This document shows, piece by piece, positions 22,973-55,735 of a stretch of DNA of 64,000 nt. The DNA comes from Escherichia coli. Lineage in GTDB: Bacteria > Pseudomonadota > Gammaproteobacteria > Enterobacterales > Enterobacteriaceae. Position 1 is the stretch's first letter; every line of letters begins with the position of its first letter. A model generated the notes under the pieces. The model saw only the letters and a program-made list of their open reading frames with translations. It ran no database searches and had not been told where the DNA came from. The translations under genes and the position numbers were made by a program. The stretch is from the NCBI RefSeq assembly GCF_016903815.1, contig NZ_CP069973.1; one strand, given 5' to 3'.

Positions 22973-23455
22973 ATGATAAAGCACCTGGTAGCACCCCTGA
23001 TTTTCACCTCGCTAGTACTGACTGGCTGCCAGTCCCCTCAGGGAAAGTTTACTCCTGAGCAAGTCGTCGCTATGCAATCTTATGGATTTACTGAATCCGC
23101 CGGCGACTGGTCGCTGGGCTTATCAGATGCCATTCTGTTCGCAAAAAATGACTACAAATTGCTCCCGGAAAGCCAGCAACAGATCCAAACCATGGCAGCC
23201 AAATTGGCCTCGACAGGGCTAACACATGCCCGTATGGATGGACACACCGATAACTATGGTGAAGACAGTTACAACGAAGGCTTATCATTGAAACGGGCGA
23301 ATGTCGTGGCCGATGCATGGGCTATGGGTGGAAAAATTCCACGCAGCAATCTCACCACACAGGGTTTAGGAAAAAAATATCCCATAGCCAGTAACAAGAC
23401 CGCCCAGGGCCGCGCCGAGAACCGCCGCGTCGCAGTGGTGATTACAACCCCTTAA
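22973..23455 (+). CDS. yfiB: OmpA-family outer membrane lipoprotein YfiB
   Basis: 160-aa product, lipobox LTGC, OmpA-like C-terminal domain. Confidence 0.85.
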   Translation: MIKHLVAPLIFTSLVLTGCQSPQGKFTPEQVVAMQSYGFTESAGDWSLGLSDAILFAKNDYKLLPESQQQIQTMAAKLASTGLTHARMDGHTDNYGEDSYNEGLSLKRANVVADAWAMGGKIPRSNLTTQGLGKKYPIASNKTAQGRAENRRVAVVITTP

Positions 23456-23627: not shown

Positions 23628-24677
23628 TTATGCAACCTCTGCCGCCATATTGTCGCCAACATACAGCGATAACGGATTAAGGGTTACAGCTTGTTCAAGG
23701 TGGTCAGGAGCAAAGTGTGCATACTTCATTGTTTCTCGAATATTGGCATGCCCGAGAATTTTCTGCAGTACCAGTATATTCCCGCCGTTCATCATAAAAT
23801 GCGCACCAAAAGTATGACGCAAAACGTGCGTCTTCTGCCCTTCCGTCAATTCAATATTCGTTAGTTTGAGCATCTTCTTAAACTCCTGATAGCAGGGTTT
23901 AAACATTCTGCCTTGACGTACGGACAACTCGTCGTACAGCCATTTAGGAATAGGAACTGTGCGATTCTTCTTACCTTTGGTTTTGGTGAACGTCAGTTTA
24001 TATGGAGAAAGTTGAGGGCGGGTCAATCTCTCCGCTTCCCCCCATCGAGCGCCGGTTGCAAGGCACACCTTAACAATCATGGTGAGGTCTTCTTTGCCGT
24101 ATTGCTCGCAGGCTCGAAACAGCTCCGGGAGCTGAGACAAAGTTAGCCAGGACATTTCTTTCTCAGCCTCTTTGAATACTCGGATCCCATCAAGTGGATT
24201 GGGTAGGCTCCACTCCCCTAACCGGCGGAGCTCATTAAACACTGCTTCTAGGTATTGTTGTTCGCGATTGACGGTTATAGGTTTGGCGATCCATTTCGAG
24301 GGGTCTTTATGATAACCGTTGTCTATTTCACCACGTAATCGACGGTCACGATAATGAGCCCAGTCTTTCGCGGTAAGGCGAGATGCAATCGGGTCACCAA
24401 GCCCATTACATACGATTTGAAGCTTTGCTAACCTCGACTTACTGGCGACTAACGCTTGACCGTGCAAATTGTGCCAAAGCTGAATAATCTCGCTTAAGCG
24501 TCGGCGGTCTTCTTTCTTGCCAAGCCACGGCTTATCTTCACTCTCGCTTTTGGTAAATGCTTCGAATGCCTCGGCCTCACCTTTGGTATTGAATTGCCGA
24601 CGTATACGCCGCCCTTCTCGACCATTTGGATAGAGCTCGCATAACCATTTGCCATTTTTTTGCTTACTTACAGTCAT
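23628..24677 (-). CDS. int: tyrosine site-specific integrase
   Basis: 349-aa product with R…HxxR…Y catalytic signature (VLRHTFGAHF, MKYAH); adjacent to attL. Confidence 0.9.
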   Translation of the reverse strand: MTVSKQKNGKWLCELYPNGREGRRIRRQFNTKGEAEAFEAFTKSESEDKPWLGKKEDRRRLSEIIQLWHNLHGQALVASKSRLAKLQIVCNGLGDPIASRLTAKDWAHYRDRRLRGEIDNGYHKDPSKWIAKPITVNREQQYLEAVFNELRRLGEWSLPNPLDGIRVFKEAEKEMSWLTLSQLPELFRACEQYGKEDLTMIVKVCLATGARWGEAERLTRPQLSPYKLTFTKTKGKKNRTVPIPKWLYDELSVRQGRMFKPCYQEFKKMLKLTNIELTEGQKTHVLRHTFGAHFMMNGGNILVLQKILGHANIRETMKYAHFAPDHLEQAVTLNPLSLYVGDNMAAEVA

Positions 24678-24699
24678 AATGTCACCGAGGCAACTCTAA

Positions 24700-25038
24700 T
24701 TATTCGCAAAGTGCTGTTGCGGCATCCATTACAGGATCCAAAGGAATTTTTACACCTGCATACTCTGGACTGTCTTTCCAAACAGCATCAATATTGCTCC
24801 CCTCAAGCTTTCCAGACTTTACTCCATCAATAGCAAAACCATTTAATGGGTATCGGTCATCAGTTGCTTTGTCGTATACAAAGGCATACTTACCGTTAAC
24901 GCAAGACACCGTAGCTTTTTCAAAAGTTAACGGCCAATCCTCACCAAACTTAGCGCCATCTAAATCCTGTGTTTTTTCAGCGGCTAAGGAGCCAAAAGAA
25001 AAGGTAAGAAGCATAGCTAAAAAGAGTTTACGTTTCAT
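24700..25038 (-). CDS. small secreted/periplasmic protein of unknown function (moron between cI and int)
   Basis: Start chosen at MKRKLFLAMLLTFSFGSLAA (cleavable signal peptide); two Cys residues; no recognised domain. Confidence 0.55.
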   Translation of the reverse strand: MKRKLFLAMLLTFSFGSLAAEKTQDLDGAKFGEDWPLTFEKATVSCVNGKYAFVYDKATDDRYPLNGFAIDGVKSGKLEGSNIDAVWKDSPEYAGVKIPLDPVMDAATALCE

Positions 25039-25046
25039 AATTTCCC

Positions 25047-25907
25047 TTATACGTGTTTTTCCAATGTGAAAACTACAACCCCGGCAGGCGTAATGTCGGT
25101 AATGTTGCATTCAAACTCAGCAGACTTATTTGACAACCTGACTTTTCCACCAGGTAAACGAATTACATCAAAAACATCAAGAGCGCCGTCGATATCAATT
25201 AACCAGCGACCATTACTTATATTCGAAGCAGAACAGTCGACAAGCCAAGAGGCAGCTACACCGTCAACAAAAATCAATTCCCCTGAGTTAGAAGGAATCA
25301 TTGAGGGGTCAGGATGCCACGTTCCTGCATCCTTAAGCTCACCAGATTCAAGACGAGATTTTTTAATAGAAAAACCAGATGTGACATCTTCCCTGTTAGC
25401 TCGCATTTGCCCCTTGCCTGTTGCTAACCATTCCAGTGACGTATCGGTATCAAGAGCGCATGTAACAACAACATCACCAGGGAAAAAATCTCGCCTTACC
25501 CATGTGCTAATTGTGCCAGAGGAAATGCCGAGCAAATCACCGAGCTCCTTTTGCATGGTAAAGCCATACGCATCAAGAATCCTACGCAAAACGGTTTTAC
25601 CACCATTCGTCATAATCTCGTCATAAAGCTCTTTGCCTTTTAACTTGCAACTGGCTCGCTCGTGATTTGCATTTGCAAGCTCTCCATTTACAAGCCAATT
25701 GATATCAGCTCCCGTGTCAAGACAACACCTAACTATGACATTGCCAGGTATTGCATCACGCTGAACCCAGCCGCTAACGCTGTGTTTAGCGATACCTAGC
25801 AGGTCAGCCAAATCCTTTTGCATCTTGACCCCATAGGCTGACATTAAGCGTTCCAATACGCCGTTCGTTGCACTAACACGCCACTGAACATCAAGCTCAG
25901 AACTCAT
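25047..25907 (-). CDS. CI-like immunity repressor with tandem duplicated N-terminal HTH domains
   Basis: Two homologous segments (…RLMSAYGVKMQKDLADLLGIAKHSVSGWVQRDAIPGNVIVRCCLDTGADINWLVNGE and …RILDAYGFTMQKELGDLLGISSGTISTWVRRDFFPGDVVVTCALDTDTSLEWLATGKG) resembling the 186/P2 CI DNA-binding domain, plus a C-terminal domain; divergent from the early operon. Confidence 0.75.
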   Translation of the reverse strand: MSSELDVQWRVSATNGVLERLMSAYGVKMQKDLADLLGIAKHSVSGWVQRDAIPGNVIVRCCLDTGADINWLVNGELANANHERASCKLKGKELYDEIMTNGGKTVLRRILDAYGFTMQKELGDLLGISSGTISTWVRRDFFPGDVVVTCALDTDTSLEWLATGKGQMRANREDVTSGFSIKKSRLESGELKDAGTWHPDPSMIPSNSGELIFVDGVAASWLVDCSASNISNGRWLIDIDGALDVFDVIRLPGGKVRLSNKSAEFECNITDITPAGVVVFTLEKHV

Positions 25908-25936
25908 AAAACCCCCTACAGATAATTTTATGGGTG

Positions 25937-25965
25937 TTTACAGAAAACTTTTTACGATCTATAGT
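25937..25965 (+). promoter_or_regulatory. candidate early lytic promoter (pR-like)
   Basis: -35 TTTACA, 17-nt spacer, -10 TATAGT in the cI/apl divergent intergenic region. Confidence 0.45.
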
Positions 25966-26028
25966 GGCATTCATCGACCAAGATGCACACCACTGCACTA
26001 CATTTCAAACAACAGGAGATAATGCGAT

Positions 26029-26400
26029 ATGTCAGATGCAAAATCAATCTCGACGCACGACTCGCAAAACTCACAAAATCAAACTGTGCTGCTAAATCCA
26101 ACACAGTTTGATGCCATCGTTACCGCCATGCTGCCAGCTCTACAGACAATGATTCGCTCCGCTATGTCAGACACGATGACTGTGAAAGACTTCGCCGCTA
26201 CTCGCGGTGTTAGCGAGCGTCTGGTCTGGCAATGGCTCGATGAGGGAGTCCTTCTCAAAGCTCCGACCAAAGACTTTTCCAACAAAGAGGAAGCTGCTAA
26301 ACGAAGCCGAACCCTCGTAAACGTAAAAGCATGGCGCGATAAGCTGACTCAACAAGCGATTGATTGTCGCTACATCGACCAGCGCACCGCTCTTAACTGA
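26029..26400 (+). CDS. Apl/Cox-like excisionase-regulator (HTH)
   Basis: First gene of early operon, AGGAG SD; HTH-like segment VKDFAATRGVSERLVWQWL; role assigned by position. Confidence 0.5.
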   Translation: MSDAKSISTHDSQNSQNQTVLLNPTQFDAIVTAMLPALQTMIRSAMSDTMTVKDFAATRGVSERLVWQWLDEGVLLKAPTKDFSNKEEAAKRSRTLVNVKAWRDKLTQQAIDCRYIDQRTALN

Positions 26401-26432
26401 ATTTGATTATGCAAGTTAGAGGGAATTTAACC

Positions 26433-26942
26433 ATGTTTGATTTTCAGGTTTCCAAACATCCCCACTATGACGAAGCATGCCGCATTTTCGCACAGCGTCA
26501 CAACATGGCGAAGCTGGCCGAGCGTGCAGGTATGAACGTTCAAACGTTACGTAACAAGCTCAACCCGGAACAGCCTCACCAGTTCACGCCGTCTGAATTG
26601 TGGCTGCTGACTGACCTGACCGAAGACTCAACCCTCATTGATGGTTTTTTAGCGCAGATTCACTGCCTACCATGCGTGCCGGTTAATGAGTTGGCTAAAG
26701 ACAAATTGCAGTCTTATGTCATGCGCGCAATGCGTGAACTCGGCGAACTGGCGAGCGGCGCGGTATCTGATGAACGTCTGACCATTGCCCGTAAGCACAA
26801 CATGATTGAAAGCGTTAACTCCGGCATTCGCATGTTGTCATTGTCGGCTCTGGCGCTGCATGCACGTCTGCAGACTAATCCAGCTATGTCGAGCGTGGTC
26901 GATACCATGAGCGGTATTGGCGCATCGTTTGGTCTGATTTGA
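26433..26942 (+). CDS. cII: CII-like lysogeny establishment regulator (phage 186 type)
   Basis: 169-aa product starting MFDFQVSKHPHYDEACR, recognised as 186 CII-like. Confidence 0.8.
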   Translation: MFDFQVSKHPHYDEACRIFAQRHNMAKLAERAGMNVQTLRNKLNPEQPHQFTPSELWLLTDLTEDSTLIDGFLAQIHCLPCVPVNELAKDKLQSYVMRAMRELGELASGAVSDERLTIARKHNMIESVNSGIRMLSLSALALHARLQTNPAMSSVVDTMSGIGASFGLI

Positions 26943-30266: not shown

Positions 30267-30286
30267 TACTGTATAAATATACAGTA
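30267..30286 (+). promoter_or_regulatory. LexA operator (SOS box) upstream of tum/dinI-like pair
   Basis: TACTGTATAAATATACAGTA, near-perfect CTGT-N8-ACAG palindrome, followed by GGGAGGG SD and ATG at 30306. Confidence 0.75.
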
Positions 30287-30305
30287 ACCCTATGGGAGGG
30301 ACTTC

Positions 30306-30488
30306 ATGGTTGGCGAACATTTCAGCCGAACGCAGCAAAAGTGGGCTTGTGTGCAATTTATTGCCGAGGTATCTCTGATTGCAAACTGCAAGCCATCAGA
30401 CTTAAAGCTCGCGCTCACTCTCATTGCAGACCTAGCAAACAGCGAAAATAACGAAACCGAAGATGATAATTTTTATAAGGCTGATTAG
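30306..30488 (+). CDS. small protein, candidate Tum-like antirepressor module
   Basis: 60-aa ORF directly downstream of the LexA box; function inferred from position only. Confidence 0.45.
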   Translation: MVGEHFSRTQQKWACVQFIAEVSLIANCKPSDLKLALTLIADLANSENNETEDDNFYKAD

Positions 30489-30491
30489 ATT

Positions 30492-30722
30492 ATGAGAATC
30501 AATATCACGTTGGATAAAGAGCAAAAATTAGGGCAACAGATCATTGATGCTTTTCAAAATGAAATAACACATCGAGTACAATGCGTTTTTCCTGCAACAA
30601 AAGTTAACGTTAAGAAAGGGTCAATGACTGGTGTAGAGGCTATCGGATTCGATAAAGAGGCGGACAGAGAAACATTAGGCAGCATATTACAAGAGATTTG
30701 GGAAGACGATAGCTGGCGTTAA
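30492..30722 (+). CDS. DinI-family protein
   Basis: 76-aa product with DinI-like C-terminus (…LGSILQEIWEDDSWR). Confidence 0.75.
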   Translation: MRINITLDKEQKLGQQIIDAFQNEITHRVQCVFPATKVNVKKGSMTGVEAIGFDKEADRETLGSILQEIWEDDSWR

Positions 30723-31205: not shown

Positions 31206-32147
31206 TTAATTTATTTTTAATGAATGGTAATCTCGTGAGTTGACCGAAGATTTGAGATAACTGCAATCATTAACCGACAGTATTGCCGCTAATAGGCGAC
31301 ATACCAGTGCCTGCATTTGCAGCAATATATCGTTACCATATTGACTGTTGTTAACACTTGAGAAACCAAGCGGTTGACCAAAAAAAATAGCCTCATGAAA
31401 ATTATCATTGCGGATGCCAGAAATGTTTTTTTTACCTGACACCCATGTGGGGATTGATAACCCATAAATTTTGCACATCCACTTTAATCGCTTGTAATGA
31501 TTTGGCGGTTTTTTATCAGGAGCCTTGTCATGCTCAGCCCACGACAAAGCAAAGCACCCATCAAGTGCCATGTAAAGGTACTGGAATTTTTCAAAAGAAA
31601 GGTATTGTGGGTTTTGAGATAAGAATAGTGCATGCACCACTGCCGCAATTCTTTTGGGGGAGTGCGCATCCTTATGTTTGCCATTTATATAATTAAGAGC
31701 CAGTTCTATGACTTCTTTTTCAGAGCATCCAACGAGAATAAAGTCGGTTAACTTAGTGGGCTTGATAGTGGTTGCATCTAAAAAACCAGCGTCAGTGGTT
31801 GTCAATCTTATTCCCTTGAAAAAAGAAAGGCACCACACAATAAAGTTGAGAGTTTCTAACGAGGATGTATTTTTTAATTTTAGTGTGTGCGTTTTGGGCA
31901 TACTGAATACTCGGTGACTATAAGGCATTGTGGATATGCCACCATTAAGGTTATATACATCTTGGTTTCCAGGGTATATCCAACCTTTCACAACGTTTTT
32001 ATCATTATTAACACGCTCCACTTTCTCATTGAGACCAGGTAAAGTAAGCAAAGAAAATTGTTCAGTCTCAATGTTAACTTCTACTGGATAGTATCCAAAC
32101 TCCGACATAATCTCATTGGGTTGCTGTTCGTCAACTTCACCTTGCAT
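31206..32147 (-). CDS. accessory protein (313 aa) with Rx4H motif; candidate HEPN-like abortive-infection protein
   Basis: A+T-rich ORF in the region between replication gene A and cos; motif GIRNDNFHEA (R-x4-H); no other recognised domain. Confidence 0.65.
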   Translation of the reverse strand: MQGEVDEQQPNEIMSEFGYYPVEVNIETEQFSLLTLPGLNEKVERVNNDKNVVKGWIYPGNQDVYNLNGGISTMPYSHRVFSMPKTHTLKLKNTSSLETLNFIVWCLSFFKGIRLTTTDAGFLDATTIKPTKLTDFILVGCSEKEVIELALNYINGKHKDAHSPKRIAAVVHALFLSQNPQYLSFEKFQYLYMALDGCFALSWAEHDKAPDKKPPNHYKRLKWMCKIYGLSIPTWVSGKKNISGIRNDNFHEAIFFGQPLGFSSVNNSQYGNDILLQMQALVCRLLAAILSVNDCSYLKSSVNSRDYHSLKIN

Positions 32148-32622: not shown

Positions 32623-33627
32623 CTAATTTACATGTATGTAGAGTTCACCGTCGCCAGACCAATCGGGACACTCTAAAACAAGCCCAAACTGCTTGAATAT
32701 TTCATCAATGATTATTGTTATCTCCCGAAAATCACCAAAACCTGTAATGTGCTGGTCATTAAACTTCCCATAAAGATTCTGAAAAGCAATGCCTAATTCT
32801 GATAATTGATATCTTATCTTTGAGTTGGATAGTGTAAGGGATAGCTTTGGATCGTATTCTTTAATATTGATGTTTAGAGAATGGACATAACCCATCGCAT
32901 AAGCATAAGAGTTGATGATTAGCCTGATACGTTTTTTTACTTCGAGATACATGTCATTCAGAGAAATATTACCGTACTTATAACCCCAGATGAGTTTTTC
33001 AATCTCGTCAGATACTTCATTTACAACAGTGTCAAGATTCTCTAAAAATAAATCGATAGTTTCTTGAGGGGCAGACCCCGAAGACATGTAATTAGCGAGA
33101 TATTCAGACCATGCACGCGTGGCTGAGATAAGAAGCGCGCTACCATACTCGTTGACTGTAAAGTTTTGGGCTAAGCATGTTAGTAAGTTTTTTTCATGTA
33201 CGTGCACTAATTCATGGTGAATGCGATGGATGACTGCGAGGTATCCTTCTTCTTTCAGTTTTAAGAAGCTACCATCATTGAAAAGCTCAACAAAAAAATC
33301 AATCGATAGCACAAGGGTATATTCTTCACATAGCCCATCATTGCCAATTTTTGTTACTAACTGCCCGACGGCTGCGCCCTGTTTGCTATTGGTAAATGAA
33401 CTAGGGGATTTGTGTTGGTAAGAGGATGTTACCTTTTGAAGAGCTTCACTGAAGTTATAGGAAACAATCACGCATTTTAATTTGGAGATATCAAGATTGA
33501 GATTTTTTGTTAAAGCTCGGATAGCTTCTAGTGTGAAATTACCGATATTATTTGCTTCTTGCTCAGTAGCGAAACCTTCGAGGGTTATTTTAAAATCAGT
33601 TTCCAAAATATTAATCTCCGCGCCCAT
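32623..33627 (-). CDS. accessory protein (334 aa) with HExxH motif; candidate zincin-like metallopeptidase
   Basis: A+T-rich ORF between cos and portal gene Q; motif HRIHHELVHVHE with Glu about 23 residues downstream. Confidence 0.65.
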   Translation of the reverse strand: MGAEINILETDFKITLEGFATEQEANNIGNFTLEAIRALTKNLNLDISKLKCVIVSYNFSEALQKVTSSYQHKSPSSFTNSKQGAAVGQLVTKIGNDGLCEEYTLVLSIDFFVELFNDGSFLKLKEEGYLAVIHRIHHELVHVHEKNLLTCLAQNFTVNEYGSALLISATRAWSEYLANYMSSGSAPQETIDLFLENLDTVVNEVSDEIEKLIWGYKYGNISLNDMYLEVKKRIRLIINSYAYAMGYVHSLNINIKEYDPKLSLTLSNSKIRYQLSELGIAFQNLYGKFNDQHITGFGDFREITIIIDEIFKQFGLVLECPDWSGDGELYIHVN

Positions 33628-54947: not shown

Positions 54948-55022
54948 AAAAGCAAATCATAACTTGCAAATGCAATTTTAGAGTTTATTATTCCCTCAAA
55001 CGCGCCAGCAGGGGGAAAAATT

Positions 55023-55384: not shown

Positions 55385-55735
<351 letters not shown>

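Follow-up and report, generated by a model that had tools for sequence, protein, structure and literature searches.

The 64,000-nucleotide stretch of Escherichia coli DNA analysed here (NCBI RefSeq assembly GCF_016903815.1, contig NZ_CP069973.1; hereafter the window) carries cI, an ATG-initiated gene at 25047..25907 (-) for an immunity repressor of 286 amino acids (aa). Its domain order is HTH1-linker-HTH2-linker-CTD (HTH, helix-turn-helix domain; CTD, C-terminal domain), with two Pfam PF07022 matches and one PF16452 match. The open reading frame (ORF) encodes the CI repressor of a PSP3-type (Eganvirus, 186-like) prophage: its product is 100% identical to the CI of Escherichia phage vB_EcoM-613R3 and 98.3% identical, with equal length and five amino-acid differences, to that of Salmonella phage PSP3 (AAN08403, GenBank AY135486). 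The gene order int-DUF2511-cI / orf30-cII-fil...A-tumA-tumB, in which A is the replicase gene, matches that of PSP3, and D and pag (Ogr_Delta) lie at the far end of the prophage. A 1.9-kb region around cI is present in 123 of 5426 complete E. coli genomes. As a sequence, the protein is not new: it has been public since the PSP3 deposit, and both domains are marked by Pfam. In the PSP3 record the sole annotation of CI is 'immunity repressor', the only paper we found on the length of the protein puts it down to a longer C-terminal domain and not to a second HTH (PMC3448106), and no description of an HTH duplication was found in the searchable full-text literature.

The repressor consists of an N-terminal HTH copy that varies among relatives (HTH1, residues 15-77; 25677..25865 (-)), a first linker (residues 78-101; 25605..25676 (-)), a near-invariant copy in the position of the N-terminal domain of 186 CI (HTH2, residues 102-166; 25410..25604 (-)) and a C-terminal oligomerisation domain (residues 183-286; 25050..25361 (-)) assigned from PF16452 and from a Foldseek match to the structure 2FKD. 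Pfam placed two separate PF07022 (Phage_CI_repr) stretches in the protein (E 1.3e-52 for the whole protein) and PF16452 (Phage_CI_C) at residues 180-274 (E 1.3e-20). Alignment of residues 1-95 with residues 96-286 gave a BLOSUM62 score of 183, against 27.7 +/- 4.9 (maximum 55) in 500 shuffles, and the two copies were 47% identical over 66 columns; the HTH duplication is real and far above chance. AlphaFold2 modelled three separate folds, namely two five-helix bundles and a beta-rich C-terminal domain, with low-confidence linkers at residues 78-90 (predicted local distance difference test <50) and 169-177. In a sequence alignment, 186 CI (PDB 2FJR) was colinear with residues 105-279 (E 1e-21), and Foldseek superposed the modelled CTD on 2FKD, the 14-mer of the 186 CI CTD, with a template-modelling score of 0.90 and a root-mean-square deviation of 1.6 Å. 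Thus, HTH2 and the CTD together correspond to the whole of 186 CI, to which HTH1 and its linker have been added at the N-terminus. The protein departs from the canonical 186-type architecture (one HTH, linker and CTD, ~190 aa), being a family member by homology and a variant by architecture. The original prediction, made from the sequence alone, that two homologous segments of about 60 aa precede a single C-terminal domain is therefore borne out by Pfam, the self-alignment and the 2FJR alignment; its label '186/P2-type' is imprecise as regards P2, whose repressor C belongs to an unrelated, non-alignable family (PMC3448106).

To place the two copies in an evolutionary frame, we used the relatives of CI retrieved from 5.8 billion proteins (731 in all), the best 120 of which are mostly 276-290 aa long, a few truncated entries apart, with identity down to 58%; their hosts include Escherichia, Salmonella, Klebsiella, Enterobacter, Citrobacter, Cronobacter, Pantoea, Brenneria and others. 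Genomic context was analysed in 84 loci, most of them from IMG/VR, in addition to the window and three phage records, and conservation of the copies was scored in 47 diverse tandem-HTH relatives. Ratios of nonsynonymous to synonymous substitution rates (dN/dS, Nei-Gojobori) were 0.146 for HTH1, 0.036 for HTH2 and 0.119 for the CTD, with dS of ~1.5-1.7 in all three alike (HTH2 ~1.66). These ratios show both HTH copies to be under purifying selection and indicate that both are functional.

An internal Met around residue 99 does exist (M99), and it had been suggested from the ORF that the true start might lie there. The working repressor would then be HTH2 plus CTD, the HTH1 part being a separate product, a fused remnant or an extra isoform. 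HTH2 and the CTD alone do make up a complete 186-type CI, and in one relative (L089:2713-3570, ENA NODE_824_length_29786) both parts occur as separate ORFs in the same frame, an HTH1-like one of 69 aa and an HTH2-CTD one of 189 aa, with two stop codons between them in the linker. This relative is a split or decaying form of the tandem-HTH CI, which makes separate products possible in evolution, though not in this prophage. The other observations run against an M99 start: M99 is replaced by Leu in 10 of 61 distinct relatives, the HTH1 reading frame is intact under purifying selection in 84 loci (including relatives at ~35% HTH1 identity), the HTH1 type follows the repeats at the early promoter pR, and a G-rich Shine-Dalgarno-like run (GGGGG) lies 4-9 nucleotides (nt) upstream of the first ATG, no good Shine-Dalgarno sequence being found ahead of M99. 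We therefore regard an M99 start as unsupported and highly improbable. Translation proceeds from the first ATG as a single 286-aa chain; a minor internal isoform from M99 may be made as well.

The two copies have evolved very differently. Across the 47 relatives, HTH1 had a mean pairwise identity of 0.61 and a column entropy of 1.01, with most variation in helices 2-3, against 0.89 and 0.30 for HTH2, its recognition helix SSGTISTWVRRDFFPGD included. Since the synonymous sites of HTH2 are saturated, its constancy reflects selection on the protein and not recent shared ancestry.

Next to the cI start lies a candidate early lytic promoter pR (TTTACA-17-TATAGT, 25937..25965 (+)), which has 10/12 consensus matches, occupies the position of 186 pR relative to the cI start and is the only sigma-70-like match in 24600-26500. 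It is accompanied by two putative operators, O1 TACAGAAAACTTT (25939..25951 (+)), overlapping the -35 element and spacer of pR, and O2 TACAGATAATTTT (25917..25929 (+)), upstream of the -35 element; the two are 13-base-pair (bp) direct repeats with a spacing of 22 bp. In the mapping of operator repeats beside the cI start, as proposed with the original prediction, these two repeats over a pR-like promoter were found and no third site. A scan of the 64-kb window for extra copies of the repeat (TACAGAWAAYTTT, <=2 mismatches) returned the two known perfect copies only, the rest being at chance level. A weaker copy resembling the pR repeat, CTACAGACAAT, is seen at 26140-26150.

At least six types of HTH1 recognition helix were found among the relatives, each with its own pair of repeats beside the pR -35 element, and the switch regions of the relatives differ solely in the 55 bp adjoining the cI ATG, according to HTH1 type, with near-identical flanks. 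The repeats are 21-22 bp apart in three types and 18 bp apart in one: 21 bp is the distance between AAATCGAAAATGAGT and AAATCGATTTTGAGT in the Midge type and between the two copies of TTAATTTTG in the L035 type, and 18 bp that between the two copies of ATT[T/C]TTGTTG in the SW9 type. In the L084 type, a perfect palindrome, AATCGCAAATGCGATT, is followed 21 bp further on by a second AATCGC. Phages with the HTH1 helix AKHSVSGWVQRD have TACAG[A/G]nAAyTTTT in common despite ~64% overall identity. From the covariation of the helices with the repeats, we infer that HTH1 reads the pR repeats and sets immunity. When the pR region was compared with the flanks by k-mer sharing in eight representative loci, no consistent positions of FL- or FR-like copies of the variable repeats emerged (FL and FR being the distal CI sites of 186).

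The same region bears on the reading in which HTH2 recognises every operator, as the single domain of 186 CI does, and HTH1 stays off pR with an accessory role such as superinfection-exclusion or anti-antirepressor specificity. HTH2 is indeed in the ancestral position, and repeats containing TGCA lie between pR and a putative pL (see below), but the sole switch-region difference among heteroimmune relatives is the 55 bp that hold the pR repeats, which change in step with HTH1 helices 2-3 while HTH2 stays constant. We consider this reading very unlikely.

A candidate target for HTH2 came from its single-HTH relatives. In a neighbour-joining tree of HTH domains, PSP3-type HTH2s formed one clade (bootstrap 94/100) together with true single-HTH CIs. 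One of the latter, P0163 (196 aa), shares 79% identity with HTH2, its recognition helix, SSGTISTWVRRNYFPGD, being nearly the same. On its contig (L087), the P0163 gene is divergent from a TTGACA-17-TAGATT promoter whose spacer is filled by the perfect palindrome AACTTGCAAATGCAAGTT. This 18-mer, searched with <=3 mismatches, had 3 matches in the window against 0.47 expected, at the FL-like, FR-like and pag-promoter positions; the exact core TTGCA-N2-TGCAA occurred at the FL-like site and the pag promoter only (simulated expectation 0.22, P(>=2) ~0.017). The FL-like site GATTTGCATTTGCAAGCT (25664..25681, unstranded), with the exact core, lies inside cI, 226-243 nt after the ATG, in the DNA coding for the end of HTH1 and the first linker, where it encodes ELANAN; the protein sequence of this linker is variable outside the ELANAN stretch. 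The FR-like site AATTTGATTATGCAAGTT (26400..26417, unstranded) lies in the orf30-cII spacer, corresponding to the position of 186 FR in the apl-cII spacer. The third palindrome, AACTTGCAAATGCAATTT (54961..54978, unstranded), is a 17/18 match to the L087 pR operator and lies in the D-pag spacer, over the likely -35 element of the promoter of pag, an ogr/B homologue (PF04606, Ogr_Delta). Measured from the pR repeats, the FL-like palindrome is 263 bp to the left and the FR-like one 473 bp to the right.

These sites are shared by phages whose HTH1 differs. The FL-like site was found with <=1 core mismatch in 74 of 84 related loci, covering all HTH1 types, and is kept in the very divergent L212 (HTH1 35% identical). 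Its codons L77-A78-N79-A80 are nearly fixed (CTT 48/48, GCA 51/52, AAT 47/47 and GCA 38/41, against gene-wide usages of 0.33 for CTT and 0.29 for GCA), and the same sequences show free variation at the nearby codons L72, V73, T74, G75, L89 and G91. The FL-like palindrome of the Midge type is found 8-9 nt away, in another codon phase. Phage-form loci extending to pag number four, of types A, B and C, and each has the exact-core palindrome at the pag promoter. The FR-like site keeps its position in types A-F, as an identical sequence at -499..-507 in types A-D and as better palindromes in the others. The invariant palindrome set thus matches the invariant HTH2 and not the variable HTH1, which suggests that HTH2 binds TTGCA-N2-TGCAA palindromes. 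A further hint at this link is the exact palindrome TTGCATATGCAA found in L089, 35 bp past the cI stop. A scan of IMG/VR for the palindrome ACTTGCANNTGCAAGT gave mostly chance matches, with a CI beside the site in the L087 family only. A 65-bp block right of pR was also considered as an HTH2 site and rejected, the adjacent orf30 coding DNA being equally conserved, synonymous sites included.

The original prediction had envisaged a single-chain repressor with two DNA-binding domains, with consequences for operator spacing and possibly for immunity specificity. In a single-chain pseudo-dimer of this kind, HTH1 and HTH2 would occupy adjacent half-sites of one operator, and each operator would combine a variable and a constant half. 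In types A, B and D, the pR repeats are direct and asymmetric units of 13-15 bp placed 21-22 bp apart, which would suit this arrangement, as would the long and flexible linker between the HTHs. However, no half-site of the pR repeats is constant across HTH1 types despite the invariance of HTH2, the operators of types E and F are good palindromes, as fits two identical domains, and TTGCA-N2-TGCAA is symmetric and found in a phage whose CI has an HTH2-type domain alone. The idea of a shared operator thus found little support, the evidence suggesting different classes of site (variable pR repeats and an invariant distal palindrome), and we judge the pseudo-dimer to be distinctly unlikely.

Another possibility is that HTH2 reads DNA only incidentally, or no longer, and has been frozen as a docking surface for TumA (the candidate antirepressor encoded by the prophage), for the CTD or for neighbouring subunits, the palindromes being read by some other conserved factor. 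We know of no other conserved regulator at the 186 FL, FR and pB positions, which counts against this alternative. In its favour, the conservation of HTH2 (dN/dS 0.036) exceeds what DNA-reading domains usually show, the TumA proteins of PSP3 and this prophage are 98% identical, and 186 Tum binds CI and blocks its operator binding (PMC3121763). Nevertheless, HTH2 retains the full HTH fold and the conserved residues of the family, the domains most closely related to it serve single-HTH CIs as their only means of DNA binding, and the palindrome lies in the core promoter of the gene divergent from one such CI, a classical operator position. A pure docking role therefore seems unlikely to us.

Taken together, these data favour a division of labour between the two copies, with HTH1 acting in immunity at pR and HTH2 at conserved long-range and late-gene sites, and we put the probability of this reading at roughly 0.53. 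HTH1 would read the two phage-specific repeats placed 22 bp apart over pR, thereby setting immunity, and would change together with these repeats in heteroimmune relatives. HTH2 would read the invariant TTGCA-N2-TGCAA palindromes, namely the FL-like one within cI, the FR-like one between orf30 and cII and the one over the promoter of the late activator pag. The CTD presumably assembles a 186-like multimer that would loop pR-bound repressor to the distal sites, with pag and the late genes kept off, and induction would be expected to proceed through the LexA-controlled antirepressor TumA and not by cleavage. None of the rival explanations fits the pairing of variable HTH1 with variable pR repeats, and of invariant HTH2 with invariant palindromes, as well as this division of labour.

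Several points weigh against this reading. All site assignments were made by sequence. The symmetry of the pR repeats differs between types, A, B and D having direct, asymmetric ones and E and F palindromic ones, which makes the docking of HTH1 pairs hard to picture. The inter-domain arrangement in the AlphaFold2 model carries no confidence (predicted template-modelling score 0.39), and the model neither supports nor excludes a pseudo-dimer. A single lineage of single-HTH CIs, the L087 family, supplies the link between HTH2 and the palindrome, and of the two half-sites of the FR-like site in the window one is good and one degenerate. Moreover, to the right of pR the DNA hardly differs between types, even at synonymous sites; conservation there carries little information, which weakens the argument from FR. 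The argument from FL is not weakened in this way, because cI itself has saturated dS. Finally, the invariance of HTH2 could stem from a conserved protein partner instead (TumA or the CTD).

Comparison with coliphage 186 helps to interpret this arrangement. The HTH and C-terminal domains of 186 CI are homologous to those of the present CI, and 186 cI occupies the same position, at the head of a cI-int operon facing pR, with cII, fil and tum as common neighbours. A passage of PMC1904263, citing Shearwin et al. 2002, states that 186 CI recognises two types of inverted repeat. 186 CI has one HTH (in a protein of 192 aa) that reads two kinds of site, whereas the CI described here, of 286 aa, has a variable HTH and an invariant one. 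In the 186 GenBank annotation, FL, FR and pB share one site type, ATTCAC-N5-GTGAAT, with two CI operators at pB; no copy of this motif was found in the annotated pR operator region of 186. The candidate FL-, FR- and late-activator-promoter sites in the window lie at the same relative positions as in 186, to judge from their sequences (the FR-like one being degenerate), and have the different sequence TTGCA-N2-TGCAA. Two repeats are seen at pR here, compared with three operators in 186, which are two helical turns apart (PMC3675496), and 186 Apl is unrelated to its analogue in this prophage. The PSP3 clade looks like a subfunctionalised version of the 186 arrangement. The conservation of the CTD fold, seen in a monomer model, is compatible with a wheel of seven dimers but is not proof of it.

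P2 C, the immunity repressor of the sister type of switch in P2-like phages, offers a different comparison. Over the early promoter, it binds direct repeats spaced by 22 bp. Its operators have been described as two direct repeats of variable spacing (PMC1904268), and the protein itself, of ~100 aa, is not alignable with CI and is devoid of a C-terminal wheel domain (PMC3448106); the likeness in repeat spacing to the PSP3 type is one of analogy only.

Two HTH units in one polypeptide, each reading its own sequence, are also found in the AraC/MarA family, in the DNA-binding regions of Tc1/mariner transposases and in engineered single-chain repressors. In these proteins, however, the two units read adjacent parts of one site, whereas the evidence on the present CI is in favour of two distinct classes of site; moreover, its HTH units differ from theirs in being recent paralogues carried on a multimerisation domain.

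If a division of labour holds, the PSP3 clade appears to have moved two DNA readings onto two domains, and swaps of HTH1 among PSP3, Midge and SW9 should switch immunity with pag control untouched; this outcome would help to explain how heteroimmune P2-like phages diversify with a shared regulatory architecture. The wheel model would need rethinking as well, for a particle with 28 and not 14 DNA-binding domains. As for annotation, database entries of ~280 aa named 'phage repressor protein CI' are tandem-HTH proteins and not CIs with a long C-terminal domain; 123 of 5426 complete E. coli genomes have them, as do many genomes of Klebsiella, Enterobacter, Salmonella and Pantoea.

An HTH-domain profile search of 1.84 billion representative proteins indicated that this architecture is not confined to the PSP3 type. 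Among the 150 best 50%-identity representatives, 56 had the order HTH-CTD and 12-13 a full HTH-HTH-CTD order, others having two, three or four copies. The CI of Klebsiella Elveevirus 4LV2017 type (L004, 313 aa) has an HTH-HTH-CTD order built from the same Pfam families and is ~32% identical overall; its HTH copies are 62% identical to each other and 35-41% identical to the copies described here. A third tandem-HTH group (P0177, P0224 and P0231) forms a clade of its own (bootstrap 100/100), and the two HTH copies within CIs of the Elveevirus type and the third group are 52-68% identical. Since the Elveevirus-type copies are nearer to each other than to the PSP3-type copies, and the third group has its own clade, the duplications were independent: tandem HTH CIs arose at least twice and probably three times. 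Within the PSP3-type clade, HTH1 is retained throughout, and a single origin is plausible, if weakly supported. In L004:2420-3361 (Klebsiella phage Kp4860-7), the linker between the HTHs is ~45 aa long, and the downstream gene is an ORF of 349 aa and not DUF2511.

More tentatively, with odds that we place somewhat short of even, the HTH duplication may have split two reading tasks that one domain performs in 186, leaving an outer, fast-evolving HTH for immunity at pR and an inner, frozen HTH for clade-wide looping and late-gene sites, one of which lies within the cI coding sequence. Immunity could then diversify without rewiring long-range control, and the same solution would have been reached independently in at least two or three CI lineages.

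The genes that would carry out induction have counterparts in PSP3. A perfect LexA box, CTGTATAAATATACAG (30269..30284, unstranded), lies 22 bp upstream of tumA (30306..30488 (+)), which encodes a candidate SOS-controlled antirepressor of CI of 60 aa, 59/60 identical to PSP3 TumA; LexA-box matches in the window numbered 4, against 0.7 expected. TumA is followed by TumB, a DinI-family protein (LexA box-tumB region 30269-30722), so that two genes take the place of the single 186 tum, as has been reported for PSP3 and Fels-2. PSP3 TumA carries antirepressor activity, according to a personal communication (PMC3121763). No match to Peptidase_S24 (PF00717) was found in CI by Pfam at E <= 0.01, and the fold of its CTD is only distantly similar to those of LexA and lambda CI (E 1e-6 to 1e-3); this CI thus differs from the S24 repressors, lambda CI and LexA among them, which have a Peptidase_S24 domain with a self-cleavage site.

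On the left, the integrase gene (23628..24677 (-)) was identified by gene order and Pfam as the last gene of the cI-DUF2511-int lysogenic operon. Between cI and int lies a DUF2511 gene (24700-25038), lipoprotein-like and leftward with cI, which is also found in PSP3, Midge and SW9 and is likely to be a lysogenic-conversion gene. On the right, the first early gene (26029..26400 (+)) is a homologue of PSP3 orf30 and, by position, an analogue of Apl/Cox, with no Pfam match; PSP3 orf30 has been described as a singleton Cox/Apl analogue (PMC3448106), and in the phage Midge record the gene in this position has HHpred similarity to a Mesorhizobium R7A DNA-binding protein. Inside the orf30-like gene, at 26078-26112, we noted a 14-nt inverted repeat (ATCAAACTGTGCTG / CAACACAGTTTGAT), 93% complementary with a 7-nt gap. 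The cII homologue follows (PF06892; 26433..26942 (+), start taken from the 510-nt PSP3 orf31).

Facing pR is a possible weak pL, TTGATT-17-CATTAT (26018-26046 (-)), scoring under the threshold of the promoter scan. The pR and putative pL start sites would be ~40 bp apart; in 186 this separation is 62 bp. Between the two promoters, at 25984-25998, TGCAC occurs twice, 10 bp apart, and TGCA-N6-TGCA is retained in the very divergent L210, L212 and L084, the spacer being variable. These TGCAC repeats could belong to pL or serve as a binding site, either a weak one for CI (through HTH2) or one for the Apl analogue.

The stretch from the tum region to the late genes is where P2-like phages have variable cargo and defence genes. 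In this prophage it holds two ORFs, of 313 aa (31206-32147) and 334 aa (32623-33627), both leftward on the minus strand, in which no Pfam or PADLOC match was found. The prophage spans ~23.6 kb to 55.3 kb, its apparent flanks being a gene for an OmpA-family lipoprotein on the left (22973-23455) and rplS (ribosomal protein L19) on the right (55385-55732).

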